From the NCBI GenBank assembly GCA_963765675.1, contig CAVXXK010000001.1, positions 512,001 to 576,000 on the forward strand: a stretch of 64,000 bases of DNA, given 5' to 3'. The stretch's first letter is position 1. Every line of letters begins with the position of its first letter. The translations under genes were made by a program, and so were the position numbers. This DNA comes from an uncultured delta proteobacterium. Its GTDB lineage: Bacteria; Desulfobacterota; Binatia; Binatales; Binataceae. Below, piece by piece: positions 2,569-50,928 of this stretch. The notes under the pieces were generated by a model that saw only the letters and a list, made by a program, of their open reading frames with translations, made no database searches and was not told the DNA's origin.

Positions 2569-3042
2569 CTAGTGAGACTTTGTATACCTGAGCCCGAAGT
2601 CGAGCTCCCAAGTGACACCATCGAGTGATTTTTCCCAACTGGCCTCAATAGTCTCCCGGTCGGAACTTATGCGGCCCGTGAAGCGCTGGTGAAATCCCGG
2701 CGAGTCGCGCCAGATTTTCCACGCGCCTTCATCCAGAGCCATCTGATAAATCCGGGACACGCCACGCGCGTCCGCATATAGGAGCGCGAAGGTGCCCGAG
2801 GTTTCGTCAGCACCGATGATCCATCGCGCCGAGGGAGAATCGTCGCTGCCCATGTGATGAACAAGGAAGCACCCTCCTTCGATCCAGGTGAAGGTTACTG
2901 GACTGTGAACCAGCGCTGGACCGCCGACCAGTTTGTGCGTTTTCTCCGACCAGCGGATTTCCATCTCCCATCGGCCCACAAGTGGTCTTAGCTGATCGAG
3001 CGCACGACTCGCTGGCGCATTCGCGTTCGACACTTCGCTCAT
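2569..3042 (-). CDS. Conserved hypothetical beta-barrel protein (DUF1579-like)
   Basis: LVGRW, YADARGVSRIY and SLDGVTWELDF pattern; start refined to the ATG after AAGGAGG. Confidence 0.6.
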   Translation of the reverse strand: MSEVSNANAPASRALDQLRPLVGRWEMEIRWSEKTHKLVGGPALVHSPVTFTWIEGGCFLVHHMGSDDSPSARWIIGADETSGTFALLYADARGVSRIYQMALDEGAWKIWRDSPGFHQRFTGRISSDRETIEASWEKSLDGVTWELDFGLRYTKSH

Positions 3043-36007: not shown

Positions 36008-39000
36008 TCACGGCTCCTTGCTGGAGGCGGCGTGCGGCGCCCATTTCAGGATTCCTAGATCGGCGACGAAAATCGCGTAAAACGATTTGACCAGGATCAG
36101 CTCGATCACCGTAGCGAGTGCGAGTCCTCCGATCTGCGCGTAGCACAGCGGCTGCCAGAGCGGGCCGCCGTGCAGCGCCAGCGGAAACAGCGCCAGCACA
36201 GTTGCGCCCACGGTCACCATCACCGGCCGCAAGCGCTCGATTCCCGCGTCGAGCAATCCCTGGATCAGCTCCTCACCCATCTCACGGCGCTCTTCGATAA
36301 ACTCGAACAGCACGATTACGTGACTGACGATCACGCCGACGAGACTCGCGATGCCCAAAAACGCCATGAAGCCGAACGGCGCACCCATGATCCAAAGCGC
36401 GGCGACCGCGCCGACCGCGCCATACGGCACCGCCACGAACACCAGCCACGGCTTTACGAGATTGTTGAACTGCACCACCAGCGCGACGAAGATCAGCACC
36501 ACAGAAATCAACAGCACTACCGCCAGTTGGCCAAAGCCCTCGCTCTGCTTGGCCTGCTCGCCGCCGATCTCGAGGCGGTAGCCAGGCGGCAAGTGGCTGG
36601 CGATCTCTTTGAGCTTCGGGGTCGCGATCTTCATGACTTCCGACGGAAGCACGCCGGGAGCCGGATAGGCGACCACGGAGATCGTGCGAAAGTGATCGCG
36701 CCGGACGATCCGCTCGGGCGACAAGCGAAACACGATTGGCGCAACCGCCTGGATCGGAACCCGCCCGTTTCCTTGCGACGCAAAGATGTAAAGACTTCCC
36801 AGGTCTGAAAGCTGGGCGCGCTCCTGCTGGCGAAGGCGCGCGACGATCGGGATGCGCAGGTCACCGCTGATCAGCGTTCCCACCTGCGCTCCGGAAAGGC
36901 CCGCGGCGGCGGAATTGGCGATGTCCTGATTGGTTACACCGGCCAGATTCGCGCGATCGGGATTTATCGGCAGATCGATGACCGGACTCTCGGCCATCCA
37001 GTCAGTGCGGATGCGCCGCGCACCGGGAACCGAGCGCAGCACCGCCTCGGCCTGGTTGGCGATATTCTGAAGCGTCTCGATATCCGCCTGCTCGCGCGCC
37101 GGATCGATATCGGCCTGGCCGAAGATATGCACCTCGATTGGATAGCGCACCGGATTGGTGAGCAGTTGGCACACGTCAACGTATGCGCCGGGAACTTCCT
37201 TCGACAAGAGATTCTGGAGCGGGCCGACAAACTTCGGCATGTCTTCCTTATTTTCGATCTCGAGGATCAACTGCGCGTAATTAGCCTGTGGTGATTCCGG
37301 TGACACCGAAAACCAGAAGCGCGGCCCACCGCCGCCGACGAAGCTGGTGATCGATTTCAGGATCGTGCGCGGATGACCATGCTCGGGATGTTCCTTGCCA
37401 TATTCCGCGGCCGCGTTGCGCACCACTGCCGCGACTTTTTTCGCGGTGGCGTCAGTTTGAGAAATCGCCGCGCCGTTGGGAAGCCATACGTCGATATACG
37501 ACAGGTACTGCACATCCTCGGGAAAGTAGGCGCTGCGCAATTGCTTCGCGATCAGAAACCCCGCGATCAGAAACAGCATCGAGCATGCAACAAACGTCTT
37601 GCGATGCTCCAATGCGTAGTGCCCAATCCGGTAGTACACGCCGGTAGCGCCGTGGCTGCGCCGATACTCGATCGGCGGCAGCGGTTTTCCGGGCCGCATC
37701 AGGTAGTAACCGAGTTGCGGAATAAAGGTCATCGAAATGATCCGCGACGCGACCAGTGCGCAGGTCATCACGATCGGCAGGCTGTAGAGAAAATTCCCGG
37801 TGTCGCCCGAGAGCAACAGAAACGGCAGGTAGGCAACGATATTGGTGATGGTCGAGAACAGGATTGCACGTTCGAGCTTGGTCGGCCCAAGCCACGACGC
37901 GACTTCCGCCGGATGCCCGAGACCCAGATCGTGCTTGATCGCGTCGCCCGCCACCACCGGATCGTCCACCAACAGTCCAAGGGCGATGATCAAGGTCGCG
38001 ATCGACACCTGCTGGAGATCGATGCCGAGCACGTACATCATGCCGAACGTCATCGCGAGCGTGAGCGGAATTGACAGCGCGATCAGCAGCGCCGCGCGCC
38101 AATCCCAGAATCCGATCAGCGCAATGACGACCACCAGCGCGATCGCCTCGTACAGCGCACCGATGAACAGATGCACATTTTCGCGAACCTGGAGCGGCTG
38201 ATCGGAGGTGCGCGCGACTACGAGGTCCTCGGGCAGGCGGGTCTTCAGTCCCGCGATCGCCTTGTCGACTGCCGCGCCGAAGGCGCTTATCTGCTCGCCC
38301 GAGCGCATGAATACCGCGATCGTTACCGCCCGGCCGCGGTTCCAGTGCCCGTCGGCGGTCTTCCAGGTATAGAAATTCAGGAGCCGCGGCGGCGCTTCGT
38401 AACCGCGCGAGATATCCGCCAGATCGCGCAGGTAGAACGGCGATCCGGATTCCGACTTGCCGAGAATCACGTCGCCAATCTCCTGAGCGTCGGTAAATTC
38501 GCCGCTCGGATGCAGCGTCACGTCGGTGCCGGCCGCGTTGATCATCCCGGCCGACTGCGTGATATTTCGCGACGACAGAATCTGCGAAAGTTTGCTTGGC
38601 GTAAACCCGTACGACGCAAGCCGCTCTTGCGAGTAGACCAGGTTGACCCATTCCGGCAAAACGCCAGTGCGCGAGACCTTCTCGACGTCGGGAACCGCTT
38701 CCAGAGCACGCGAGATCAGATCGGTGTAGCGCTCGAGCTCGCGGTACGTGTACTTGTCACCCGCCGAGGCTTCGAGAATCGCCTCGGTCTGCGCCGGATC
38801 CCTGATCTCGACCGGCGGCCACGCGTCGGGATGAAACGCTTCGAACATCGAGGTCCCGACCTGGGAGTTGATATAGGCAGTCGCAGTTTTCACCAGGTCG
38901 GCGCCCGCAGGCTGTGCGGCGTCGAGGCCCGAAAAACCTGATCCGTCGAGCGGGCGAATATCGGTCGCCGCGTGATGCTCCGCCAGATAACGCGACAGCG

Positions 39001-39661
39001 CGTCGCGCACCCGCGTCACCGACTCGGCAGGCATCGTCGGCGGGAAGATCGTCACTAGCGAAATGCGATTGGATTTCGACTCCGGCGCGACGTTCGCGCG
39101 CGCTTTCTCGATCGCGGCGCGAACCTGACGCGCGCGTAGAGCAATCTCGACCTCGTTCACTTTGGGGCTCGCGACGGTCAGCATCAATGCCGCGGTATCG
39201 CCGAAATCGCTCTGGAACTGGATCGGGCCGGCTCCGTCAGGCAGATTGCGGATACTGGCGAGCTTGAGATTGATGTCGTTGAATTGCTTTTCGGTATCGC
39301 CGACGTTTTGAGTGAGCTGGATATAAACGATCGCGAGCCCGTCGAGCGTCAGCGATCGGATTCCGTAGTCGGTCCCGACGCCGGCGGGATGGATGTAGGA
39401 GTTGGTCGCGATCTTCTCCTCCATCTTGCGCGTTACGGTCTGTTCGATTTTCTCGGCGCTGACTCCTGGCCACGGACATATCGCGAGCGCCTGGCGCACT
39501 GGAATATCCGGATCCTTGCGCTTGGGCATGTGGAGGTAGCCGTAAATGCCCCACGCAACCACTGCGGCCAGCAGCACCCACGAGATGGCGCGATTCTCTA
39601 CAAAAAACCGCGCGGTGTTATGGGTCGTGCGGATTATTTCTTCGTCGCTGCGATGTGCCAT
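36008..39661 (-). CDS. RND efflux transporter permease (AcrB/AcrD/AcrF family)
   Basis: 1217 aa; SIPLTL, ALGLLVDD, ERLRPVMVT and PLALHGGPLWQPL motifs. Confidence 0.93.
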   Translation of the reverse strand: MAHRSDEEIIRTTHNTARFFVENRAISWVLLAAVVAWGIYGYLHMPKRKDPDIPVRQALAICPWPGVSAEKIEQTVTRKMEEKIATNSYIHPAGVGTDYGIRSLTLDGLAIVYIQLTQNVGDTEKQFNDINLKLASIRNLPDGAGPIQFQSDFGDTAALMLTVASPKVNEVEIALRARQVRAAIEKARANVAPESKSNRISLVTIFPPTMPAESVTRVRDALSRYLAEHHAATDIRPLDGSGFSGLDAAQPAGADLVKTATAYINSQVGTSMFEAFHPDAWPPVEIRDPAQTEAILEASAGDKYTYRELERYTDLISRALEAVPDVEKVSRTGVLPEWVNLVYSQERLASYGFTPSKLSQILSSRNITQSAGMINAAGTDVTLHPSGEFTDAQEIGDVILGKSESGSPFYLRDLADISRGYEAPPRLLNFYTWKTADGHWNRGRAVTIAVFMRSGEQISAFGAAVDKAIAGLKTRLPEDLVVARTSDQPLQVRENVHLFIGALYEAIALVVVIALIGFWDWRAALLIALSIPLTLAMTFGMMYVLGIDLQQVSIATLIIALGLLVDDPVVAGDAIKHDLGLGHPAEVASWLGPTKLERAILFSTITNIVAYLPFLLLSGDTGNFLYSLPIVMTCALVASRIISMTFIPQLGYYLMRPGKPLPPIEYRRSHGATGVYYRIGHYALEHRKTFVACSMLFLIAGFLIAKQLRSAYFPEDVQYLSYIDVWLPNGAAISQTDATAKKVAAVVRNAAAEYGKEHPEHGHPRTILKSITSFVGGGGPRFWFSVSPESPQANYAQLILEIENKEDMPKFVGPLQNLLSKEVPGAYVDVCQLLTNPVRYPIEVHIFGQADIDPAREQADIETLQNIANQAEAVLRSVPGARRIRTDWMAESPVIDLPINPDRANLAGVTNQDIANSAAAGLSGAQVGTLISGDLRIPIVARLRQQERAQLSDLGSLYIFASQGNGRVPIQAVAPIVFRLSPERIVRRDHFRTISVVAYPAPGVLPSEVMKIATPKLKEIASHLPPGYRLEIGGEQAKQSEGFGQLAVVLLISVVLIFVALVVQFNNLVKPWLVFVAVPYGAVGAVAALWIMGAPFGFMAFLGIASLVGVIVSHVIVLFEFIEERREMGEELIQGLLDAGIERLRPVMVTVGATVLALFPLALHGGPLWQPLCYAQIGGLALATVIELILVKSFYAIFVADLGILKWAPHAASSKEP

Positions 39662-40797
39662 TAGGGGATAATCCGGATTTGCTGGCCGTCGGTGACCATG
39701 GTCGCGCCGCGCACGATCACGCGGTCACCAATCGCAACTCCGGAGTCCACCGCGATTTCGTTGCCGACAATATCGCCCAGCCGCACCTTGTGCATCCGCG
39801 CGATCGTTTTGCCGCCCTCTGCGCTGGCGACGAATACGGCATAGCCGCTCGGATCCTCGGGTGGGCGGACCACTGCGTTTATTGGAACCGTCGCCGCGGT
39901 CGCGATTGGCGCGGACGCGTTGTTAGCGAGCTTGAGCGACGCGATCATCCCGACGCGTAAGCGGCCGTCCTTGTTCGGGATCGTGACCTCGACGTCGAAG
40001 GTGCGTGTGTTCTGGTCGGCGCTCTGCGCAATCCGCGTGATCTGCCCTTCGAGCTGCACGCCTGGCAGCGCCTCGGTGCGCAAGGTCTGCACTTGCCCCT
40101 GTTTCAACTGCCCCACTTCTATATCCGAGACTGCGAAGATCGCCTTCATCTCGGTCGTGTCGGCAATCTGAAACGCAACGACGCTCGGGCCGACCAGCGA
40201 ACCGATTTCGATTCCGCGGCTCAGCATCACGGCGTTCATAGGCGAGGTCAGCTTGCAGTAACCGAGATTGATCTGCGCCTGCTTGAGCGAGGCCTCGGAC
40301 TGCTTCACCTGCGCATCGGAAGACCTGTACTGTTGGACGGCATTGTCGTAGTCGCGTTGCGCGATGATCTTTTCCTTGAACAAGGCGCTATTGCGATTGT
40401 AGTCGGCCTTTGCCTTCGCATAGGTCGCCTCCGCATTGACCAGCACCGAGGCGGCCTGATTGACCTGCTGCTGATAGGGTCCGGTCTGAATCGTCGCGAG
40501 CAGTTCGCCGTTTTTTACGGGATCGCCGCCCTGGATATCGCGGGTGCGTCCTCCCGCTCCCGCAACTTGCTTGATCGTCTCGACATAGCCGTTGACCTGA
40601 AATGTCAAGCCAACCTGGCGGTAGGGCTGAAGGTTCGCGGTGTATGCGCCGCGATGGGCCTGCGTAGCCTCTCTGACCGCGCGCACGGTTACCGCAATCG
40701 GCGGCTCGGTGGTGGGGTTCGGGTGATTACCGCATCCGACTCCGCCGGCGATTGCCGCTACAATCAGTAATGCAAGCGAAAGATTGCGTATGTGCAA
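39661..40797 (-). CDS. RND periplasmic adaptor (membrane fusion protein), probable lipoprotein
   Basis: Lipobox-like GVGC; barrel-sandwich motifs, LTSP, TRTFDVEVTIPN and LRVGM; TTG start chosen after GGAGG. Confidence 0.88.
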   Translation of the reverse strand: MHIRNLSLALLIVAAIAGGVGCGNHPNPTTEPPIAVTVRAVREATQAHRGAYTANLQPYRQVGLTFQVNGYVETIKQVAGAGGRTRDIQGGDPVKNGELLATIQTGPYQQQVNQAASVLVNAEATYAKAKADYNRNSALFKEKIIAQRDYDNAVQQYRSSDAQVKQSEASLKQAQINLGYCKLTSPMNAVMLSRGIEIGSLVGPSVVAFQIADTTEMKAIFAVSDIEVGQLKQGQVQTLRTEALPGVQLEGQITRIAQSADQNTRTFDVEVTIPNKDGRLRVGMIASLKLANNASAPIATAATVPINAVVRPPEDPSGYAVFVASAEGGKTIARMHKVRLGDIVGNEIAVDSGVAIGDRVIVRGATMVTDGQQIRIIP

Positions 40798-40913
40798 GTC
40801 GCTCCCTCCCGAATGGCTCCGCGTACGTGCCGAATCCTCCGCCACGCGCCGCCCTTCCTGCCCCAAATGCGCTCGCGATGTTATCAGAAATCACTCAGCC
40901 TCCGCGCTACCCC

Positions 40914-41945
40914 TTACGCATAGATGCGAGAGGTATCGCGAATCCGGGCTTTGATTTCGTCGCGGAGTGTTTTGGGTTCGAGCACCTTGATAAACGGGCT
41001 CATCGCCATGATCCAATTGGCAAGCTCCGCTGTCCCTTTGAGTCTGAGCCGCAAGAGCGTCCGGCCGTCGCGCGCTACCGAAAGCTGTTGAGAAGGGTGA
41101 ATAGTGCGCGCACCAAGGCGAGCGTCCGTTTCCGGACTGAGGCTTTTCAGTACTACCGTCGTCTCGCGATCCTCACTGACGATCCCGAATGTTCCTTGCA
41201 CGAATGCCGCGGGATTGTATGACGCGGGCAGCTGGAATCTTTCGTCAGTGCCGGAATCGTCTTTGATGAATTCCACCGAGCGCATCCGCTCGACGGCCAA
41301 ATAGATAATCCCCGAGCCGCGATGACTGCGGCCCAGTAGATATAGTCCGCCGCGATATTGAACCAGGGTGTACGGATTGAAGTCGTGCTTCCGATCGCTG
41401 CCATCGGTCCGATTCATCGACGCATAGTGGATCCGCAGGCGCTTCTCGTCGAGCAGCGCGCGCATAATCACGTCGATCTGTTCTTCATACGGACGATAAT
41501 CTTTGGGGACGTACTGCACGGTGTAGAACTTGCGATTGAAGTCGCGCAGCCTGAACTGCCACGCTGGCGGCAGGTTGGTCCGCACCCGCTCCCAGATATC
41601 GTCAACGCCCGACTTGAGCACGGTGCCCTCGAGAAATTTCAGCAACGCCAGGCTCGAGTACATCGCTGCCGCCTGATACACGTTCGAGCTCGGCCCTCCC
41701 CGCCGCGCCACCAATCGCAGCTTGCGGCTCGCACCGGCGCCCGCCGTCTCGACCACCATTTGCCCCAGCTTTCCGCGCATCCTCACGAACTCGCGCACGT
41801 AGCGGTCCACCGTGCGTCCACTGACCCCAAGCTCGCGCTTAATTCTCTGGAGCGGCACTCCGAGCGGCTCTTCCGTCAGCATCATCGCGATTCGCGCGTA
41901 ACGGATTCCCGACTCATAGGTTGGTTTTCTTGATTTGACCACCAT
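40914..41945 (-). CDS. WYL-domain transcriptional regulator (HTH-WYL-WCX; YafY/DriD/PafBC superfamily)
   Basis: HTH ELGVSGRTVDRY; WYL core IHY.S...FNPYTL..YRGGLYL.G...YLAVERM; WCX IHPSQ...LANWIMAM...VLEP..LR; AAGGAGG ribosome-binding site. Confidence 0.92.
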   Translation of the reverse strand: MVVKSRKPTYESGIRYARIAMMLTEEPLGVPLQRIKRELGVSGRTVDRYVREFVRMRGKLGQMVVETAGAGASRKLRLVARRGGPSSNVYQAAAMYSSLALLKFLEGTVLKSGVDDIWERVRTNLPPAWQFRLRDFNRKFYTVQYVPKDYRPYEEQIDVIMRALLDEKRLRIHYASMNRTDGSDRKHDFNPYTLVQYRGGLYLLGRSHRGSGIIYLAVERMRSVEFIKDDSGTDERFQLPASYNPAAFVQGTFGIVSEDRETTVVLKSLSPETDARLGARTIHPSQQLSVARDGRTLLRLRLKGTAELANWIMAMSPFIKVLEPKTLRDEIKARIRDTSRIYA

Positions 41946-41970
41946 CGGCGCCTCCTTCAGAGGCATCCGG

Positions 41971-42019
41971 ATTATAGCTGCTCGCTAAGACAACCGCTGT
42001 CTTGTGGAGCAGTTATAAT
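41971..42019. promoter_or_regulatory. Symmetric bidirectional promoter/operator between the WYL gene and recC
   Basis: ATTATAGCTGCTCGCTAAGACA-ACCGC-TGTCTTGTGGAGCAGTTATAAT; arms 18/22 complementary; TGTCTT-N10-TATAAT on both strands. Confidence 0.8.
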
Positions 42020-42085
42020 GAGCGTGTTGGACGAGGCAAATCGAAACCCATATCGTCAGCCTTAAGGCACGGAGAGAAACGGGGG

Positions 42086-45000
42086 ATGCTTAGACTTCAC
42101 TACTCGAATCGGCTCGAAGGATTGATCGAGCCGCTCGCACACTCGATCACCGAGCAGCAACGGCGCGATCCGCTGCGGAAGATCTCGATCGTCGTACCGA
42201 GCCGAGCCGTCGAGCAGTTCGTGAAGTACCAGGTCGCCGAGCGTCTGGGAGTCGCTGCCAATCTCAGTTTTCCGTTCTTGCGCGCGCGTCTGACCAATGT
42301 TGTACACAGCGCCGACCCTCGGCTCCGCGTGCTCGATGCGAACGCGCTTCAACTCGTCATCTTCAACACTCTGATGAGTCAGAAAAATCGCGCCGGTTCG
42401 GAGCTCTCGCCCGCCTGGAACTACATTGACGCCGGCGGCAGCCGCGGCACTCCCGAGGCGGAGCTGCGAGCCTTCGAGTTGTCAGGACGGGTGGCAAAGC
42501 TGTTCGAAGAATACTCGATTTCGCGCCGCGCGATGCTCGCGCAGTGGAGTAGCGGCCGCGTGACTGCAGCCGGCACTGCAATCGCCGAAAATGAAAATTG
42601 GCAACAGGCTCTATGGCGAATCATCTTCGCGAGCGGCGCCGCGAATCCTGAATGGACTGGCGACGCGGCTCACGACTGGATGCTGCTGCCGGACGCTTTC
42701 GCGCGAATCGGCGACGCGGCACTGGCCGACGCGATGCGCGACGGACTCCTCCACGTGTTCGGACTCGCGTCGCCGGGCCAGGCTTATGCGGAGATTTTCG
42801 CGCGGCTCGGTAAGCTTGGCGCGCTTTCGATATACGCGCTCAATCCATGCCGGGAATTCTGGGAAGACCTGGATACCTCGCGCCGCTCTGCCCGGACTGA
42901 TTGGATCCATCGCGGAAGCCGGATTGGCGCTGATCTCGACACGAGCGAAGATCCATTCGGCCTCGCCGCCGGCGACAATCGCGCGCTCGAGCTTTGGGGC
43001 CGTCCCGGCCGCGAATATATCCGTCTGCTCAATGAGCTCAGCGATTGCGATTTCGAATCGAACTTTATCGACCAGCCCGATGGCAAAGGCGCGTCGCTTC
43101 TTTCGCGTGTTCAGCAAGATATCCTCGACCGCTCGCGCGGTGCTCAACTGCTGGACGCTCCTTCGACGGCAAGCATCAGCTTTCTGGCGTGTCCCGGAAT
43201 CCAGCGCGAGGTCGAGATTGTCGCGAACGGGATCTGGCGGCTCTTGAAGCAGAGCGCATCCGGAAAGAATCCGCTTCGCTTTCACGAAATCGGCGTGCTG
43301 ATTCCGGACACCGAGTGCGAGGCTTACGCGCCCTACATTGAGGCAGTCTTCGCGCGAATCCACGGCATCCCGGTCGAGATCAGCGGACGCAGCGTTGCGC
43401 GCCAAAGCCGCGTCGCCGAAGCAATCAGCCTGCTGCTCAAGCTCCCGCTCGGCCGGTTTACGCGCGCGGATCTGCTGCGCCTCCTGAGGCATCCTGCGCT
43501 CAGTGGCGGAGACCCTACGCTCGACGTTGAACTGTGGGATACCTGGTGCGAAGAGCTGGGAGTTTTCTTCGGCGCCGATGGGGGCGATCCAGCCGCGACC
43601 TATATTCCGCCCAATCTTTTCAATTGGGACCAGGCGCTCAAGCGACTCGCGCTGGGAGCATTCATGTCGGGCGAACGCAGCGGCGACGATCGTTTGTTCG
43701 AATCAGCCGCAATCGGCGCCTTGATGCCGCTAGAGATCGACGAAAGTGAAATCCCCGCGGCGCAGGTGTTCGTCGGCACCGCGCGCGCTCTGCTTGCCGA
43801 CGCGAACGCGATCAGGTCGGCGCGAATGAGCCTCAGCCGATGGGCGCAACTGCTCACGCGGATGATCGAGCGGTACATCATCGCCGACGAGCCCGAAGAT
43901 CGGCAGATGCGCGACCGATGCCTGGCTGCAATTGACGCGATACGTACAGAGGAAATCGAAAGCCCTGAGGTATCCTACGCCGTGGCGGAAGCGATGGCCT
44001 CGGTGCTGATTGAAGAGCTCGGCGCGCGCCAGGTCCGCTTTGCGGGGCATGGAGTAGCGGCAGGCGCGATGGGCACCCTGCACTCAATTCCTTTTCGCGC
44101 GATCTTCGTTATGGGTCTCGGCGAGTCGTTTTTTCCGGCGCGCGATCCTCGCGATCCGCTCGATCTTCGCGGGATCCGGCGCCACGCCGGCGACTTGAGT
44201 CCGACCGATCGCGATCGCTACACGTTCCTCGAATCGATTCTCGCCGCGCGCGAGCAGATCGCGTTCTCGTATGTCGCACGCGACGCGCATACTGGAGACA
44301 CGCTTGAGCCCTCGACGGTAATTCGCGAACTCCAATTCATTCTCCGCTCGTACCTAAAGGAGGACGCCGTCGATGCTCTGACCCTGACCCATCCCGTCAG
44401 CCGTTATGATCTCGCCTACTTCGGAGACCTTGGCGGCGTCGTATCGTCGCTCAACGGGCTCAGCGTCGATAGCGCTGCGCGCCAAGGCGCGCGAATCACG
44501 GCGTTGCGCGAGAATCTGGACCGTTACACCGATGACGCCGCGCGTCTGGACGCGCGCGAGCTGCTGGCAGCGCTCTCGCCCCAAGCGCGCGAGGCTCTGC
44601 GTCCCGATCTGCGGATTCCGAAGATCGATGGAGCGGCCGAGGTCGCGGAGCGCGACGCCGACTTGTATCTGCCGGTCGCTGCGTTACGCAAATTTCTCGA
44701 GTGTCCTGCGCAGGGCGCCGCGCGTTATGCGCTGGGCATGAGCGAAGACGAAGACGCCGACGAAGATATCGTCGACGAACCGGTCGACATGACCAGGCTC
44801 GACCAGGTGATACTGCTGCGCGAGCTGTTTTGGAAGCTGCCGCCGACCGAGGCCGCCGCCGAATCCGAATACGTGCGCGCGGCCGCGCTCGCGCAGATGA
44901 AGGGACGCGCACCGGCAGGTCCAATCGCCGATACATTGCGCGATCAGGACCTGGGTTTGATCCGGGGCTGGACTAAGTCCGCTGAGAAAGCGAATGCCGG

Positions 45001-45682
45001 CAATTTGTCGAAGTGGAAAGAGTTTCGTATCGGCCGCGCCGACGAGCACGCGTCATTGGCGCAAGAGATTCTGCCCTATCTGGTACTCGAAGTGCCGGTG
45101 CGGACGGCGCCCGGCAACATTATCACGCGGCGAGTCAGGCTCTACGGAAGCGTCGGAGTCTTCTCACCCGGATTCGACGCCGCGTTGCAATGCCTCACGC
45201 GCAAGGACGCCAAGGCCAAACATTTCCTGCCCCTGTTCCTGAACGCGATTGTGCTCAAAGCGGCGGGCGAGCCAGTTGCAAAAAAGTTCAGAGCGATCCT
45301 GGTGAGCGCCGGGGCCGAGAGCGAAAAGCCGCCTCTGTGGATCAGAACGCTGCGCGTGCCAGAACAGAATCAGACGGTCGAGTATCTCACAACACTCGTC
45401 AGTGATCTGCTTTCCGGGCCGCACGATTATTTCCTTCCAGTCGAAGGGGCGGAAGAAGTTTACAAGTTGTCGCGAAAAGGCAGCGGCGCGGAAGAAGCCG
45501 TGTCGGCGCTCGAAGAAATGCGCGATCAGGAACGTGACCGTGGGTTACCCAGCTCCGCGTATGGACCTGTGCGCCGATGGCGCGAACTCGAACTGCCTGG
45601 CGCGCAAGGAGTCTTCGAGCTCGTGAATCGCCGCTTCGGGCCGACCAGGTCGCTGTTCGACGATGAGGACGCGGGCGAATGA
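42086..45682 (+). CDS. recC: Exodeoxyribonuclease V gamma subunit
   Basis: MLRLHYSNRLE.L, LGVAANLSFP, LNPCREFW.D, WGRPGRE, LSRVQQDI, REVEI, IPFRAIFVMGL, DRYTFLESIL and PS.VI.EL motifs. Confidence 0.93.
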   Translation: MLRLHYSNRLEGLIEPLAHSITEQQRRDPLRKISIVVPSRAVEQFVKYQVAERLGVAANLSFPFLRARLTNVVHSADPRLRVLDANALQLVIFNTLMSQKNRAGSELSPAWNYIDAGGSRGTPEAELRAFELSGRVAKLFEEYSISRRAMLAQWSSGRVTAAGTAIAENENWQQALWRIIFASGAANPEWTGDAAHDWMLLPDAFARIGDAALADAMRDGLLHVFGLASPGQAYAEIFARLGKLGALSIYALNPCREFWEDLDTSRRSARTDWIHRGSRIGADLDTSEDPFGLAAGDNRALELWGRPGREYIRLLNELSDCDFESNFIDQPDGKGASLLSRVQQDILDRSRGAQLLDAPSTASISFLACPGIQREVEIVANGIWRLLKQSASGKNPLRFHEIGVLIPDTECEAYAPYIEAVFARIHGIPVEISGRSVARQSRVAEAISLLLKLPLGRFTRADLLRLLRHPALSGGDPTLDVELWDTWCEELGVFFGADGGDPAATYIPPNLFNWDQALKRLALGAFMSGERSGDDRLFESAAIGALMPLEIDESEIPAAQVFVGTARALLADANAIRSARMSLSRWAQLLTRMIERYIIADEPEDRQMRDRCLAAIDAIRTEEIESPEVSYAVAEAMASVLIEELGARQVRFAGHGVAAGAMGTLHSIPFRAIFVMGLGESFFPARDPRDPLDLRGIRRHAGDLSPTDRDRYTFLESILAAREQIAFSYVARDAHTGDTLEPSTVIRELQFILRSYLKEDAVDALTLTHPVSRYDLAYFGDLGGVVSSLNGLSVDSAARQGARITALRENLDRYTDDAARLDARELLAALSPQAREALRPDLRIPKIDGAAEVAERDADLYLPVAALRKFLECPAQGAARYALGMSEDEDADEDIVDEPVDMTRLDQVILLRELFWKLPPTEAAAESEYVRAAALAQMKGRAPAGPIADTLRDQDLGLIRGWTKSAEKANAGNLSKWKEFRIGRADEHASLAQEILPYLVLEVPVRTAPGNIITRRVRLYGSVGVFSPGFDAALQCLTRKDAKAKHFLPLFLNAIVLKAAGEPVAKKFRAILVSAGAESEKPPLWIRTLRVPEQNQTVEYLTTLVSDLLSGPHDYFLPVEGAEEVYKLSRKGSGAEEAVSALEEMRDQERDRGLPSSAYGPVRRWRELELPGAQGVFELVNRRFGPTRSLFDDEDAGE

Positions 45683-48600
45683 ACGGCGCGATATATATCC
45701 GTCCCTCCGTCATCGACAAAATCGGACTCGGCACGCATCGCGTGATCGAGGCCAGTGCCGGCACCGGCAAGACCTTCACGCTCGAGCATCTGATTGTCGA
45801 GTTGCTGATTCGCGGAGAAGCGAAGCTCGATCAAATCCTGGCCGTCACCTTCACTCAGCGCGCGACCGCGGAGCTGCGCGCTCGCGTTCGCGCCGCGATC
45901 GATCGCGCTCTGCGCGCGGCGTATGCAGACGATAAAGCAATCAAATCGGCGTTCCCCGGCATCGACCTTGTTGCGCCGCTCGAGGCGGCGCTGTTTTCTT
46001 TCGAGCGTGCGCCGATTCACACGATTCACAGTTTCTGCCAGCGAGTCCTGACTGAACTCGCATTCGATACTGGCGCGAGGTTCGGGACCGAGGCCGCCGA
46101 TGGACGCGCTTTGTTCCACGAGGCGTTCCGCGCGGTGTTGCGCGAAAAAAGAATAGCTAGCGCCGAATACTCCGAGCCCCTTGAGAAATGGATTAAGGAT
46201 TCGGGCAAGCCGGTTGACGACCTCGAGAAGATGCTCTTCGAGGTGAACAGCAATCATTATGATCCGGAAAATGGCGCAACGGCGGCGTCGATCGAATCTC
46301 GGCTGGCCAACCTGTTCCTGCCGCCGATGCGCGAATGGCTGAGCGCGGAAAAGTTCCGCCGCGGCGTGATCGACTATGACGACATGCTCGAACGTGTTCA
46401 TCAGGCGCTCGAGGACGACACGGACGGCAGGCTCGCTGCGGCGCTGCGCGCGCGGTACTGCTTCGCTCTGATCGACGAGTTCCAGGACACCGACCAAATC
46501 CAGTGGGCAATCTTCCGCAAAATCTTTGTCGACGGAGATACGCAGAGCGCCTTGTATCTGATCGGCGATCCCAAGCAGGCAATCTATTCATTTCGGGGCG
46601 CCGATGTTCACGCTTACATGCGGGCGCGCGACAAAATTGCCGCGCCGCCGAATGATCCGATTGCGCTGACCGAGAATTTTCGCTCGACCGCACCGATGAT
46701 CGCCGCGGTCAACGCGATTTTGGATCAGAACGCGAATCCACCGCTGTTCAACAGCACGATCAAATATCAGAACCCGGTCTTCTGCGGGCGCGAAGATCTG
46801 TGTGCTAAGGCGGGTGGCAAAGAGCTGACACCGATCACGCTGATTACGGCGAAACACGACGCGAAATATAAGGCGGCGGCCCTGAGGCGGATGCTCGCGT
46901 GCCGGATCGCCGCGACGATCAAGGCGATCGTGAATGACCCTGACTCGGCGATCACCGTCACTGACGGCGCGAAGTCCGGACCGGCGGTCACGTACGGAGA
47001 TATTTTTATTCTGACCAACACTAACGCCGAAGGAATCAAACTTGCCGAGTATCTCCGCGCCGAAGGCGTCCCGTATGCATTCTACAAACGCGAAGGATTG
47101 TTCCAGACCGATGAGGCGCGCGATGTTCTCGACATGCTGCGAGCCGTCGCCGCGCCTAACAATCGATCGCATCGCCTGAAGGCGTGGGCGACGCCGTTCT
47201 TCGCCATCCCGATGCGCGAGCTCGCAAAGTTGGATGAGCCGGCACCTTCCGATCCACTGATGGCGCGATTGGCGAAGTGGCACGGGCTCGCGAAGGAGGG
47301 AGATCTCGCGGAGTTGTTCGACTCGCTGCTCGAAGAGAGCGGCCTGGCGGCGCGCCAACTGTTTGGGGCACCAAATCTCCGCGAGCTTACCAACTACGAA
47401 CACCTCTTCGAGTTGATCCTCACTGAATCGCTCAGGGAAGGATGGTCGATCGCGGAAATTATCGATCGTCTCGGCGCTTACGTCGGCGAGTATCGGCTGC
47501 CGTCGGGCGAGGATCCTAATCTCATGCGGCTCGAAAGCGAACGCGCGGCGGTCCAGATCATGACGATTCACAAAGCCAAAGGGCTCGAAGCGCGAGTCGT
47601 TTTTCTCTTCGGCGGTTTCTTCGCGAACAACAGTCCGCGTCCGGTGAAGATTTATCATGACCAGGAAAGCGTTCGCCGCCTCGCTATCGGCAGCGCCGCG
47701 CAGCTCATGGAACGCGGGCCGATCAAGCAAGACGAGGCCGAAGAGGATCAGCGGCTGCTGTACGTAGCGATCACGCGCGCACGCGCAAAACTTTATCTCC
47801 CTTATTTTCCAACCAGACCCGGAAAACTTGATCTGTCCGGAAGATACAAGCAGCTGAATGATCGACTGCGCGCCATGGACGCGGCCGGACAGCTTGCAGC
47901 GCCTCTGTTCGAGACCGTTGCGCTGGAAATGGAGCCACGCGAGATCAGCGCGAACGCAAATCCGATCAGCGGATGGCGGCCTCCGGCAAGCCTGCTCGCG
48001 GACCCGAGCGCCGTAAAACTCGAAAGCGAGCTCGCGACCCTAGCACACAGATGCGCCGCGCTTTCGACAGTATCGTACACGTCGTTAAATCGCCGCGCCG
48101 TACCGGAACTCGATCTGAGCGAATACAAGGAACCTATCGCCGAGGCTCCAGGGACCGCATCGGAGCCCGCTGGAGGCGCCGCGGCCGGAATCTTTCTGCA
48201 CGAGACGATCGAAAAGCTCGATCTGAAAGCTCTGGCCGTCGCACGCGATCTTGCTTCATGGAGCGCGCTCGACGAGGTTCGCGAGCTGTTCGATTCCGCA
48301 CTGCGGCGTCATCAGGTGCCTGAACGCGAGCGCTGGATGATCCGCGGCCCGGAGCTCGTCTTCAACACCCTGCGATCGCCAATCGCGGCTGGAGCCACGA
48401 ACATCCCCGCACTGGCCGGATGCGAGTCCTCGCGCGAGATGGAGTTCACGTTTCCGATACCCGAGGCCGGGCACGGCCTGCTCGCTTCCGCGCGGGCGAA
48501 TGACGCCGCGCGATGGCGAATCGAGCGGGGCGTGTATGTTGGATTCGTGGATTTCGTTTTCCGCCACGAAGATCGCGTCTACTTCGCCGACTGGAAGAGC

Positions 48601-48886
48601 GACCTGCTCGACTCGTACGAACCCGACTCGGTCGCGCAGCACGCGCGGAATAATTACAGTCTGCAGGCAAAAATCTACACCATCGGCGTTACGCGCCTGC
48701 TTGGCATTCACACCGAGGCGGAGTACGAGGCCGGGTTCGGCGGCTTGCTCTACCTGTTTATTCGGGGCATCACGCCCCGCGGCGGCGGAAATCGTGGTGT
48801 CTACTTTTATCGTCCGCCTTGGGCCGAAGTGGTGCGCGCAGAAGGCGAGCTGATGCGGCCGTTTCGAAATGGTGGGCAACCGATGA
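45679..48886 (+). CDS. recB: Exodeoxyribonuclease V beta subunit (N-terminal part of the 45679-50928 ORF as sequenced)
   Basis: IEASAGTGKT, VTFT, TIHSFC, IDEFQDTD, IGDPKQAIYSFRGAD, NFRS, MTIHKAKGLE, LYVAITRA; nuclease motif GFVDFVF......ADWKS. Confidence 0.92.
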
Positions 48887-50928
48887 AGCCCCTTTATTCT
48901 CTGCTCGGAATGGACACGGCCACTCAGCGCAGCGCCCGTGCGGAGCGCGCCGCTACGCAGTTCGAAACCGACATGGCGCGTCTTCGCGCGTCGGTCGCCG
49001 AACTCAATCTCGATCCCGGCACGGTGCATCTGGCGGCGGAAATCGCAGCGCTCGAGCCCGCCTTCGAGCTGGACGACAGCGCGCGGTTCGCGCTGATTGT
49101 GCTGATTGTCCTGTCGCTGGCCGCCGTCGCTGAGGGCAACACGCGATTTCCCGTGAGCGGCGATGAATCGAAACAACCGCTGGAGCGGATGCTTTCCGCC
49201 CTGATGGCGCCGCCTTTCGACGATTTCACGCGCGAGCGGGTCGAGCAGAAAATCGCGGAGATTCTCGCCGCTGATAGCGCGCCTGCGGTAATCGGACGAA
49301 GTCCCGACTCGCGCCGTCCGCTGCTTTATCTGAAGCCGTATCTTTACCACGAGCGAATCTACCGCGCCGAGCAAAGACTTGCCGAACGCCTGGCGGCGTT
49401 GGTGGACATCGATGGCGAGCCAAACATGCCGGCGATCGCAAAGTCACTTGCGGATGTGGTTGCTCGTCCGGCGATGATCGCCGGCACCGCAGCGGTTCTT
49501 TCTGACGAACAACGCCGGGCGGTCGGAATCGGCGCGAGTTCGCGGCTTGCGATAATTTCTGGCGGCCCGGGAACTGGCAAGACTTCGATAATCGCGGCGA
49601 TCCTGCGGGTGCTGGTGCGCGTTGGGATTGATCCCGCGGCCGTCGCACTGGCCGCTCCAACCGGGAAGGCCGCCTACCGGATGAGTGAGTCGATCCGCAG
49701 CACGATCGGATCGATCGAAAATCCGGCTCCAGAAGATTCCACGCTCGCCGCCGCGATTCCTGCTGCGTCCACGATTCATCGCTTGCTCGGGTTTTCGAGC
49801 ACACGAAGATCTTTTATTCATCATCGCGGCAATCCGCTCGACGCGTCGGTCGTAATCGTCGATGAGGCGTCGATGCTCGATCTGACGTTGATGGATCATT
49901 TGACCGGGGCGCTTCGGCCGCAGGCGCGCCTGGTGATTGTCGGTGACGCCGATCAGTTGCCGTCGGTTGCCGCGGGCGCGGTGCTGCGCGATCTGATGCC
50001 GGCAGCGGAACCGGCCGCATCCGCCGCTATGGCGGGAGTAAGCGCAACGCTCAGCAAGAACTATCGCGCGAGGGCCGAGGACACGGGCGGAGCGGCGATC
50101 GCAATGGCGGCGCGGCAAATCAACGAGGGGCGCGCGGATCTGATCTCGGCCGCCGACAGTCCGGTAGTCAGGAGGGCGACTGCAGCCGAGATCGCGTTTT
50201 CCGGCGTCGAGCTCGTCACCGGCGCGTCGGAGTCACTGCCGGAATTTCTGTCGTTATTCGCGCGGAAACAAATCGAGTCCGATGAGTACGCTGCGATGGC
50301 GCAGGAAAATTATACGTTCGAAGACGGTGCGTTCAGCGCCGAGGACGCGGCGACAATAGCGCGGATGCTCGCGCATCTGGCGCGAGCCAGGATCCTTTGC
50401 GTGACACGGATTGGACGTTGCGGCGCCGACGCGATCAACGCGCGGATGCATCGCGCTGCGCCGGGCCGCAGCATTCCGCCCGAGCGCGGCGCGATGATCG
50501 CGGGCGAGCCGGTGATTGTTATGCGCAACGACTACGATCACATGCTGTTCAACGGCGATCAGGGCGTGCTGGTGAACCTTGCCGAGCGCGGTGGACGCCG
50601 CTCGCTCGCGGCAGTGTTCACGCGAGAGACGGGCCTTGCCGCGTTTCGAATCGAAATGCTGTCGGACGCGATCGATCTGTGCTACGCGATGACGGTGCAT
50701 AAGGCGCAAGGCTCGGAGTTCGATTGCGTCGCGCTGATTCTGCCCGAGCGCGACATGCCGCTGCTCTCGCGCGAGACGATCTACACGGCAGTCAGCCGCA
50801 GCCGGCGATCATGCGTGATCTTTGGCGACAAGGATCTGCTCGAACAAGCCGTGGCGCGGCGTAGCGAACGGTTCTCCGGACTCGCGCAGGCGATCGAGCG
50901 CTATCGTGCCGGTAATACCGGCGGCTGA
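48883..50928 (+). CDS. recD: Exodeoxyribonuclease V alpha subunit (in frame with recB as sequenced)
   Basis: ISGGPGTGKT, AAPTGKAA, TIHRLLG, VDEASM, VGDADQLPSV, NGDQG, YAMTVHKAQGSEF, YTAVSR; own ATG at 48883 after GGTGG. Confidence 0.9.
   Translation: MKPLYSLLGMDTATQRSARAERAATQFETDMARLRASVAELNLDPGTVHLAAEIAALEPAFELDDSARFALIVLIVLSLAAVAEGNTRFPVSGDESKQPLERMLSALMAPPFDDFTRERVEQKIAEILAADSAPAVIGRSPDSRRPLLYLKPYLYHERIYRAEQRLAERLAALVDIDGEPNMPAIAKSLADVVARPAMIAGTAAVLSDEQRRAVGIGASSRLAIISGGPGTGKTSIIAAILRVLVRVGIDPAAVALAAPTGKAAYRMSESIRSTIGSIENPAPEDSTLAAAIPAASTIHRLLGFSSTRRSFIHHRGNPLDASVVIVDEASMLDLTLMDHLTGALRPQARLVIVGDADQLPSVAAGAVLRDLMPAAEPAASAAMAGVSATLSKNYRARAEDTGGAAIAMAARQINEGRADLISAADSPVVRRATAAEIAFSGVELVTGASESLPEFLSLFARKQIESDEYAAMAQENYTFEDGAFSAEDAATIARMLAHLARARILCVTRIGRCGADAINARMHRAAPGRSIPPERGAMIAGEPVIVMRNDYDHMLFNGDQGVLVNLAERGGRRSLAAVFTRETGLAAFRIEMLSDAIDLCYAMTVHKAQGSEFDCVALILPERDMPLLSRETIYTAVSRSRRSCVIFGDKDLLEQAVARRSERFSGLAQAIERYRAGNTGG

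Follow-up and report, generated by a model that had tools for sequence, protein, structure and literature searches.

A conserved palindrome beside a WYL regulator gene is the probable operator of a recC/recB-recD promoter without a -35 box in Binataceae

Introduction

DriD of Caulobacter crescentus is a homodimeric activator of wHTH-3HB-WYL-WCX architecture that acts in an SOS-independent damage response (PDB 8tp8, 8tpk, 9pfq and 9pfv). The homodimer binds a pseudo-palindrome, and its site is reported as ATACGAC(X)7GTCGTAT (PMC13004042, PMC10853764). Promoters of this type are described as lacking a -35 box and as carrying the site at a constant distance from the -10 (PMC13004042). In the cryo-EM work sigma region 4 and the wHTH lie on opposite faces of the DNA, and activation is attributed to contacts of the three-helix bundle with the alpha-CTD and beta subunits of RNA polymerase (PMC13004042). 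Residues R37 and R41 are reported to read the two guanines of the GAC half-site, while E40 reads a flanking C (PMC10853764). The driD promoter is bidirectional and, by the published account, the divergent operon is activated and driD itself is not (PMC13004042). An 'optimal -35' construct described there has TTGACA 17 nt ahead of CAATCT (PMC13004042). By our own count on the DriD oligonucleotides, GTC (GGC in didA and bapE) is followed by 12 nt and then CAATCT, CAAGGT or CAAGCC, a spacing that would become 11 if the authors' -10 lies one base off.

DdaA of Acinetobacter is likewise described as a homodimeric WYL activator, with the box CGACA-N5-TGTCG and with repair genes and a small division inhibitor among its targets; its box lies about 160 bp from aciT (PMC13010146). 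The mycobacterial PafBC motif, tGTCgg(N10)tA(N3)T, can be written as GTC-N12-TANNNT, and forms a -26 element at promoters with no -35 (PMC8635444). PafBC is reported to be a heterodimer on a non-palindromic half-site that cannot bind DNA without RNA polymerase, and to insert between sigma region 4 and the DNA (PMC13004042). Finally, the WYL repressors CapW and BrxR bind palindromes of roughly 20 bp at the promoter of an adjacent operon, from which ssDNA releases them (PMC11662680).

The locus described here came to attention through an original prediction, made from the DNA letters, of a symmetric element that fits both the PafBC and the DriD geometry. The two motifs named in that prediction could both be verified in the published descriptions (PMC8635444 for PafBC; PMC13004042 and PMC10853764 for DriD). 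The GAC/GTC half-site is common to DriD, DdaA, PafBC and the Binataceae family studied here, and the register with the -10 is common to DriD, PafBC and this family, as far as the cited descriptions go.

Results

A symmetric element between a WYL regulator gene and a recBCD-type operon

The window, a stretch of 64,000 nucleotides from an uncultured delta proteobacterium, belongs to a genome of the Binataceae, which NCBI taxonomy places within the candidate phylum Binatota. The features that matter here are the following.

40914..41945, minus strand: wHTH-WYL-WCX regulator gene, 343 aa (Pfam WYL 3.3e-12, WCX 1.3e-11)
41971..42019, no assigned strand: 49-bp imperfect inverted repeat (18/22), comprising the putative operator and two outward-facing predicted -10 hexamers
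41971..41976, minus strand: predicted -10 hexamer TATAAT of the regulator's own promoter, predicted start near 41964
41989..42001, no assigned strand: core operator GACAACCGCTGTC, putative WYL homodimer site, family consensus GACAAC-N-GTTGTC, that is GAC-N7-GTC
42014..42019, plus strand: predicted -10 hexamer TATAAT of the recC promoter (P1), predicted start near 42026
42026..42061, plus strand: 36-nt recC-leader element, TTGGAC-N18-TATCGT plus flanks, conserved in the genus loci
42086..45682, plus strand: recC-like gene, 1198 aa, head of the divergent operon (Pfam Exonuc_V_gamma 4.9e-54, RecC_C)
45679..50928, plus strand: recB-recD fusion gene, 1749 aa, its start overlapping the recC stop

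The WYL gene on the minus strand and the recBCD-type operon on the plus strand flank the element, which therefore fills the 140-nt divergent intergenic region. The regulator starts at ATG 41945, with a Shine-Dalgarno sequence AAGGAGG at 41952-41958 on the minus strand, and its orthologues align from residue 1. On the other side, the recC-like protein scores 339 bits against TIGR01450, under the cut-off of 582.9 bits. The fusion protein matches TIGR00609 (recB, 2.4e-162) over residues 202-1053 and TIGR01447 (recD, 1.8e-111, over the cut-off) over residues 1112-1737. No defence system adjoins the regulator in the window.

A repeat search delimits the element as two arms of 22 nt, 41971-41992 and 41998-42019, which are complementary at 18 of 22 positions (82%) across a 5-nt gap. 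Read along the plus strand, it consists of ATTATA at 41971-41976, 12 nt, GACAACCGCTGTC at 41989-42001, a further 12 nt, and TATAAT at 42014-42019, and each strand reads TGTCTT-N10-TATAAT. In layout, arms, outward-facing TATAAT hexamers and TGTCTT-N10 spacing, the original prediction thus described the element correctly in every detail. Both hexamers in the window are perfect TATAAT, which could give some factor-independent activity.

The absence of a consensus -35 box, also part of that description, is borne out. A sigma-70 promoter scan of 41500-42500 returned 0 promoter-like sites, and the best hexamer at a spacing of 16-18 nt matches TTGACA at 2/6 positions on the recC side and at 1/6 on the regulator side. 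Canonical -35/-10 promoters do occur in this genome: among tRNA upstream regions, the best score is at least 8/12 in 13 of 53, compared to 2 of 53 after shuffling. We dropped the idea that the distal half-site serves as a -35-like ATGACA/TTGACA, as by our own count it lies 21 nt from the -10, which is too far. The core at 41989-42001 covers about -37 to -25 of both predicted promoters. These overlap completely, with their -10 hexamers 37 nt apart, and there would therefore be room for only one polymerase at a time.

An inverted repeat of this quality (22-nt arms, at least 18 matches, loop of 0-10) occurs nowhere else in the 64 kb, and first-order Markov simulations (n = 30) gave a mean of 0.1 comparable repeats per window. 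The G+C content is 61.5%. The exact sequence AAGACA-N5-TGTCTT occurs once in the 4.52-Mb, 16-contig genome and its reversed control 0 times.

The core and the recC-side -10 are conserved together

Orthologous loci were drawn from 41 related genomes and from 80 public loci belonging to Candidatus Binataceae, Binatus and 'uncultured delta proteobacterium' MAGs, and were pooled into 93 non-identical loci. Of the 41 related genomes, 23 have a regulator orthologue, and every one of the ten other genomes of the genus is among them. A site was counted when a 13-mer no more than 130 nt from the regulator start matched GACAAC-N-GTTGTC at 10 or more of the 12 defined positions. The original prediction had proposed looking for the motif in orthologous intergenic regions, and it is conserved there: the core stands beside the regulator in 64 of the 93 pooled loci and in all 39 public loci with a divergent recC, although such counts overstate their statistical weight because related genomes are non-independent samples. 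All the genus loci have recC as the divergent neighbour (the WYL/recC pair occurs in the ten other genomes), as do 39 of the 80 public loci. Although protein identity in these loci drops to about 45-50% and the flanks become unalignable, most cores are perfect palindromes. We see that the site accompanies the orthologues of this regulator across genera, whatever gene adjoins, and this conservation is the strongest argument, on the sequence evidence, against a chance palindrome. Distant homologues with the same box adjoin AAA ATPases and an antitoxin gene, a context typical of CapW and BrxR.

The spacing to the -10 is also regular on the recC side. At the 39 recC loci, TANNNT follows GTC after 12 nt in 35, after 11 nt in 3, and at neither distance in 1. 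Over the divergent-gene side of all 64 loci, 39 have TANNNT at offset 12 and 4 have it at offset 11, with at most 1 locus at any other offset from 0 to 22. Where the neighbour is not recC, a strict TANNNT at offset 12 is found at 3 of 19 sites. The bases of the 12-nt spacer between core and -10 vary and are not conserved. Most -10 hexamers of the family are weak (TAGGTT, TATGTT and TAAGAT), and only 2 of 47 sites have the TGn of an extended -10 ahead of the hexamer. A repressor placed over the site of sigma region 4 would also hold a fixed position.

The predicted regulator-side -10 is a feature of the genus

TATAAT at 41971-41976 is predicted to act as the -10 for transcription of the regulator gene, and in this genome it has the same register as the recC-side hexamer. 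All 11 genus loci retain the left hexamer, as ATTATA, ATTGTA or AGTATA on the plus strand. Its spacing from GAC is 12, 13 or 14 nt within the genus, varying through small insertions, while the spacing on the right is 12 or 11. The 13/11 combination is seen in locus L009, from unpublished genome G010, and the identical sequence is present in public locus L037. In the pooled loci the regulator-side offsets are 12 in 8 cases, 14 in 6 and 9 in 5, and outside the genus these loci show no fixed -10 on this side.

The original prediction suggested that the element may activate in both directions. Conservation does not support this, because the spacing on the regulator side drifts from 12 to 14 nt even within the genus, and DriD, as described, leaves its own divergent promoter unactivated. 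A genus-level reading would place the WYL homodimer at the mirror centre of two overlapping, mutually exclusive promoters, each with TATAAT 12 nt from a half-site, and the way its tilted core faces would decide whether polymerase goes to its own gene or to recBCD. Positive autoregulation would then be joined to a feed-forward loop: ssDNA made by RecBCD would activate the regulator and so lead to more RecBCD. We think this rather doubtful.

The site recurs at a small Cys-rich gene and at a wider set of genes

The genome contains a second site, GACAACGGCTGTC, followed by 12 nt and then GATAAT, in an intergenic region of contig C6. An ATG 6 nt past GATAAT opens a 70-aa Cys-rich ORF that matches no Pfam family, and for which a Protein Atlas search returned only unnamed clusters and weak zinc-ribbon leads. 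Homologues of the Cys-rich protein occur in 8 of the 41 genomes, spread over 5 genera, and all 8 have the site (11 or 12 of 12 positions) with a -10-like hexamer at offset 12. In 6 of the 8 the ATG lies 6-8 nt beyond the hexamer, which indicates that the hexamer is a real -10 of leaderless or near-leaderless transcripts. This second target also indicates that the regulator does not act on its own locus alone.

A composite pattern, GACAACNGYTGTC-N13-A-N3-T, was applied to 81 genomes of the family, with the reversed pattern as control. It gave 46 matches compared to 1 for the control; the matches fall in 21 of the 81 genomes, and the other 60 have no exact match. Two genomes of one sister genus have 9 and 6 copies. 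Downstream of the pattern lie genes for RmuC, a Cas4-like nuclease, a Cas3-C-terminal-like protein and WHD-AAA ATPases, together with phosphatase/ADP-ribosylglycohydrolase fusions, an outer-membrane efflux protein, a PAS protein and WYL genes (for example at locus L147 of unpublished genome G083). At many of the composite sites an ORF starts 4-10 nt past the hexamer.

In the home genome, the pattern first proposed for defining a regulon, GACA-N5-TGTC-N12-TANNNT, gave 3 matches, namely both orientations of the element and one site inside tilS, with 1 match in the control; it misses the Cys-rich promoter because the -10 there is GATAAT. A PWM scan gave 5 matches above 14, and 0 in the reversed genome; besides the element, these were the tilS site and two weak ones. 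The tilS site is perfect, lies upstream of ftsH with TATACT at offset 12, and recurs in two sister genomes, but its conservation proves little because it is coding sequence. A near-site upstream of dnaB, with 1 mismatch and a hexamer at offset 13, was rejected as a member of the regulon: only the closest species retains it, and it overlaps what we take to resemble a DnaA box. One perfect palindrome without a -10 (G000:C1:948559) lies inside a 500-aa ORF.

The regulator resembles DriD most closely

A sequence search of the PDB matched DriD at 3e-6 and PafBC at 2.5e-3, and returned no CapW or BrxR chain up to E = 1. An AlphaFold2 model computed with 48 sequences averages pLDDT 74, with low values (41-62) for the linker helices at residues 85-132. 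Foldseek with this model gave 8e-17 to 1e-14 for DriD, 1e-11 for PafBC and 1e-7 to 1e-6 for BrxR and CapW. The full-length alignment to DriD covers about 340 columns, and Pfam and Foldseek together give a wHTH-linker/three-helix bundle-WYL-WCX architecture. By sequence and by modelled fold, then, the closest solved relative is DriD, followed by PafBC and then by BrxR and CapW.

Residues R44, T45, D47 and R48 align with R37, T38, E40 and R41 of DriD, an equivalence that rests on a short collinear match and on the fold, because the N-terminal alignment to DriD is weak (2.6 bits). Within the 48 sequences R48 never varies, and the conservation of R44 is 90% or higher. We predict that R44 and R48 of the recognition helix read the GAC-N7-GTC box, as their counterparts do in DriD. 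Eight residues of DriD are named as ssDNA contacts (PMC10853764). In the sequence alignment Y168, R189 and Y192 are identical here (Y174, R198 and Y202), R178 and S172 correspond to H187 and R179, and R204, W206 and R207 are replaced by I, L and A.

The locus has a single WYL gene, and the genome has just one further WYL-domain gene, on contig C14. A homodimer model scored 0.55, and the best of 3 controls 0.00. Among 30 proteins solved as pairs of one chain 20 reach the mark of the model, and among 23 solved as single chains 1 does. The pass may reflect likeness only, because DriD dimers have already been solved. Agreement between the runs is at least 61% of contacts, with a partner pLDDT of 72 or more. 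The modelled interface lies in the WCX region, at residues 310-342. With a single gene, a palindromic site and a model well above its controls, the homodimer put forward in the original prediction is plausible. The assignment of the element to a WYL regulator is supported as well, as the adjoining gene encodes a wHTH-WYL-WCX protein. The GTC-N12-TANNNT geometry is strongly conserved on the recC side and agrees with PafBC and DriD promoters alike.

Discussion

We consider it probable that the core is the operator of the adjacent DriD/DdaA-type WYL homodimer, which would replace the -35 of the recC/recB-recD promoter and activate it together with ssDNA. If the regulator works like DriD and DdaA, its WYL domain would bind ssDNA arising from damage or from RecBCD itself, and this would release the wHTH domains. 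The dimer would then sit at about -37 to -25, the place of the missing -35, and the DNA-bound dimer would recruit RNA polymerase holoenzyme to an otherwise weak, -10-only promoter. The -10 of that promoter lies exactly 12 nt past the GTC half-site, and its transcript would serve recC and recB-recD.

The likeness to DriD, as that system is described, extends over several features. Both have a palindromic GAC-N7-GTC site in a promoter without a -35, 12 nt from the -10 (our own count for DriD), within a bidirectional promoter shared with the regulator's own gene. The DriD targets are DNA-repair genes and a small protein; here they would be recBCD and the small Cys-rich protein. The two proteins nevertheless share only about 20% sequence identity, and the ssDNA-contact residues are partly kept. 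The box here is GACAAC-S-GTTGTC with a G+C centre, whereas the DriD box has CGAC and an AT-rich centre. The recC and recB-recD target lies outside the DriD regulon as described, the host belongs to the candidate phylum Binatota, and within the genus a second -10 mirrors the first. With DdaA the GACA-N5-TGTC core is common to both boxes.

The CapW (CBASS) and BrxR (BREX) regulators offer a different model, to which we give a minor share of the probability: a WYL dimer that blocks both back-to-back promoters until ssDNA releases it, derepressing recBCD and the regulator gene. They have the same wHTH-WYL-WCX build, a palindromic operator at a neighbouring operon and ssDNA as the signal (PMC11662680, in the description given there). 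The operator in our window overlaps the region that RNA polymerase must occupy at both promoters, both -10 hexamers there are perfect, and AAA ATPase and antitoxin genes adjoin the distant homologues. However, the neighbours repressed by CapW and BrxR are described as anti-phage systems, with the operator lying over a promoter that is otherwise complete, whereas here the neighbour is recC/recB-recD behind a promoter without a -35. Promoters with neither a -35 nor an extended -10, and in most of the family with a weak -10, would have little need of a repressor. The known activators have the same strict GTC-N12 register, and the fold and sequence are nearer to DriD and PafBC than to BrxR and CapW. 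From this pattern we infer activation rather than repression, which is nevertheless a serious rival.

If the dimer does activate, geometry alone cannot separate recruitment of the DriD type from sigma adaptation of the PafBC type. The original prediction had proposed the latter. In such a model one wHTH of a symmetric homodimer would read TGTC at about -26 and the other would hold sigma region 4, in both directions alike. Here, TGTCTT-N10-TATAAT on both strands equals the published PafBC motif, a -35 box is absent, the WYL/WCX fold is shared, PafBC is the second-best structural match, and PafBC likewise has a damage regulon. But PafBC, as reported, is a heterodimer of two paralogues, adjacent or fused, on one half-site, and needs RNA polymerase to bind DNA (PMC13004042), whereas here a single gene stands beside a 13-bp palindrome of which both half-sites are conserved in 64 loci, implying that both wHTH domains are on the DNA. 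Nor does the regulator side behave as a symmetric arrangement would suggest, with its variable spacing in the genus and no fixed -10 elsewhere, and DriD is reported not to activate its own promoter (PMC13004042). Because the second half-site is conserved, the gene is single and the protein is closer to DriD, a homodimer described as recruiting polymerase through alpha-CTD and beta, we favour DriD-type recruitment and regard sigma adaptation as less likely, indeed as quite improbable. More remote still are the notions of a chance palindrome and of an element that serves a different factor, for instance a lineage-specific LexA or the genome's second WYL protein. The genome does encode a LexA (200.7 bits, over the cut-off) and does have that second WYL-domain protein on contig C14. 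However, no site with 2 or fewer mismatches lies near lexA and no related site lies upstream of it, for which reason a LexA box was rejected, and the element co-varies with the orthologues of this regulator and not with the second WYL gene. Chance is excluded by the conservation and by the excess of composite matches over the single control match.

In our view the locus adds a well-supported case of a switch that is already described in Caulobacter, Acinetobacter and mycobacteria. WYL activators outside Actinobacteria, and the architecture found here, have been published already: DriD belongs to the Alphaproteobacteria and DdaA to Acinetobacter, so that the novelty originally seen in a setting outside Actinobacteria falls away. 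The new elements are the phylum, the role of recBCD as primary and conserved target, a second conserved target that encodes the small Cys-rich protein, and a mirror-image -10 peculiar to the genus. A full-text literature search gave no WYL regulator driving recBCD among the matches listed, and a search joining Binatota and WYL found nothing. Judged from sequence, DriD/DdaA/PafBC-type activators that sense ssDNA and replace the -35 would thus extend to an uncultured candidate phylum, with a conserved and testable regulon of recC, recB-recD and the small Cys-rich protein, to which sister genera add RmuC, nuclease and phosphatase-ADP-ribosylhydrolase genes. If RecBCD is indeed induced by ssDNA of its own making, double-strand-break repair or phage defence would contain a positive loop. 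The same GTC-N12-(-10) geometry recurs despite the different contacts with RNA polymerase reported for DriD and PafBC, and this helps to predict such promoters.

The recC leader may hold a further signal. A search of 41800-42300 against Rfam gave no match at E up to 1, and RNA structure was dropped as an explanation for the conserved 36-nt element; a sequence-level element is preferred because the consensus fold is weak, at only -1.2 kcal/mol over 9 sequences. Where loci have insertions of 100-200 nt after P1, the element still lies directly upstream of recC, and it is a candidate for a second, factor-independent promoter or another control site.

A predicted regulon member and other sites elsewhere in the genome

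Three further sites were located in the genome that contains the window (G000), the first of which defines a second regulon member.
C6:511320-511566 (locus L112, 3001-3250): gene for a 70-aa Cys-rich protein (CxxC...CxC...CxxC), with operator
C3:42384-42414 (locus L111, about 2983-3013): perfect GACAACNGTTGTC within the 3' part of tilS, followed by TATACT at offset 12 (nt from GTC to the -10-like hexamer)
C3:468860 (locus L113, 3001-3013): near-site with one mismatch, about 105 nt upstream of dnaB

The Cys-rich protein belongs to no known family. Its operator is followed by GATAAT at offset 12 and then, 6 nt on, by the ATG, a spacing from which the transcript is probably leaderless. We see the operator conserved at all eight loci with homologues of this gene, across five genera. 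By analogy the product may be a damage-induced small protein, which would parallel didA for DriD of Caulobacter and aciT for DdaA of Acinetobacter.

The tilS-internal site, which is oriented towards the downstream ftsH and was found again in two related genomes (G005 and G009), could function as a promoter within the gene or reflect a coincidence of the coding sequence. The dnaB near-site overlaps a sequence that we take to be DnaA-box-like; it is conserved in the closest species only, while the flanking motif is retained more broadly.

The operator in related genomes

In the sister genus g15, the nine composite operator/-10 sites of G024 and the six of G081 (e.g. L136, L150 and L157-L162) suggest a much larger regulon, predicted to include a Cas3-C-like protein, an outer-membrane efflux protein, a PAS protein and unknowns. 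Some of these sites are orthologous between both genomes, and one is bidirectional. More distant regulator homologues (L070, L080, L083, L092 and L088), 42-45% identical and with the box unchanged, adjoin not recC but an ATPase gene (DUF5925-AAA or WHD-AAA type) or the gene for a Phd/YefM antitoxin; the regulator-operator pair has evidently been redeployed for defence-like modules.

Sequences flanking the recC and regulator promoters

The following features lie on either side of the two promoters in the window.
42026-42061, + strand: 36-nt recC-leader element (TTGGAC, 18 nt, TATCGT, then CAGCC), conserved genus-wide
45679-50928, + strand: recB-recD fusion gene, 1749 aa (recB model, residues 202-1053; recD model, residues 1112-1737)
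39661-40866, - strand: HlyD-type efflux gene, 48 nt beyond the 3' end of the regulator gene and codirectional with it
36008-39661, - strand: AcrB-type efflux gene, after the regulator and HlyD-type genes on the same strand

The leader element holds its position about 25-45 nt before recC despite insertions of 100-200 nt after the WYL-type promoter (L008, L010 and L028), and could serve as a second promoter, one that is factor-independent, or as a different kind of control site. An Rfam search of 41800-42300 (E up to 1) gave no match, and a consensus fold of nine sequences gave no conserved structure. The ATG of the recB-recD fusion shares sequence with the stop codon of recC. Neither RecC nor RecB reaches its NCBIfam equivalog cut-off.

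With the regulator gene and, 48 nt further on, the efflux genes all read in one direction, the left promoter, the regulator's own, may drive an operon that includes the efflux genes. This gene order is retained in only 7 of 80 loci, those with a regulator at least 81% identical.
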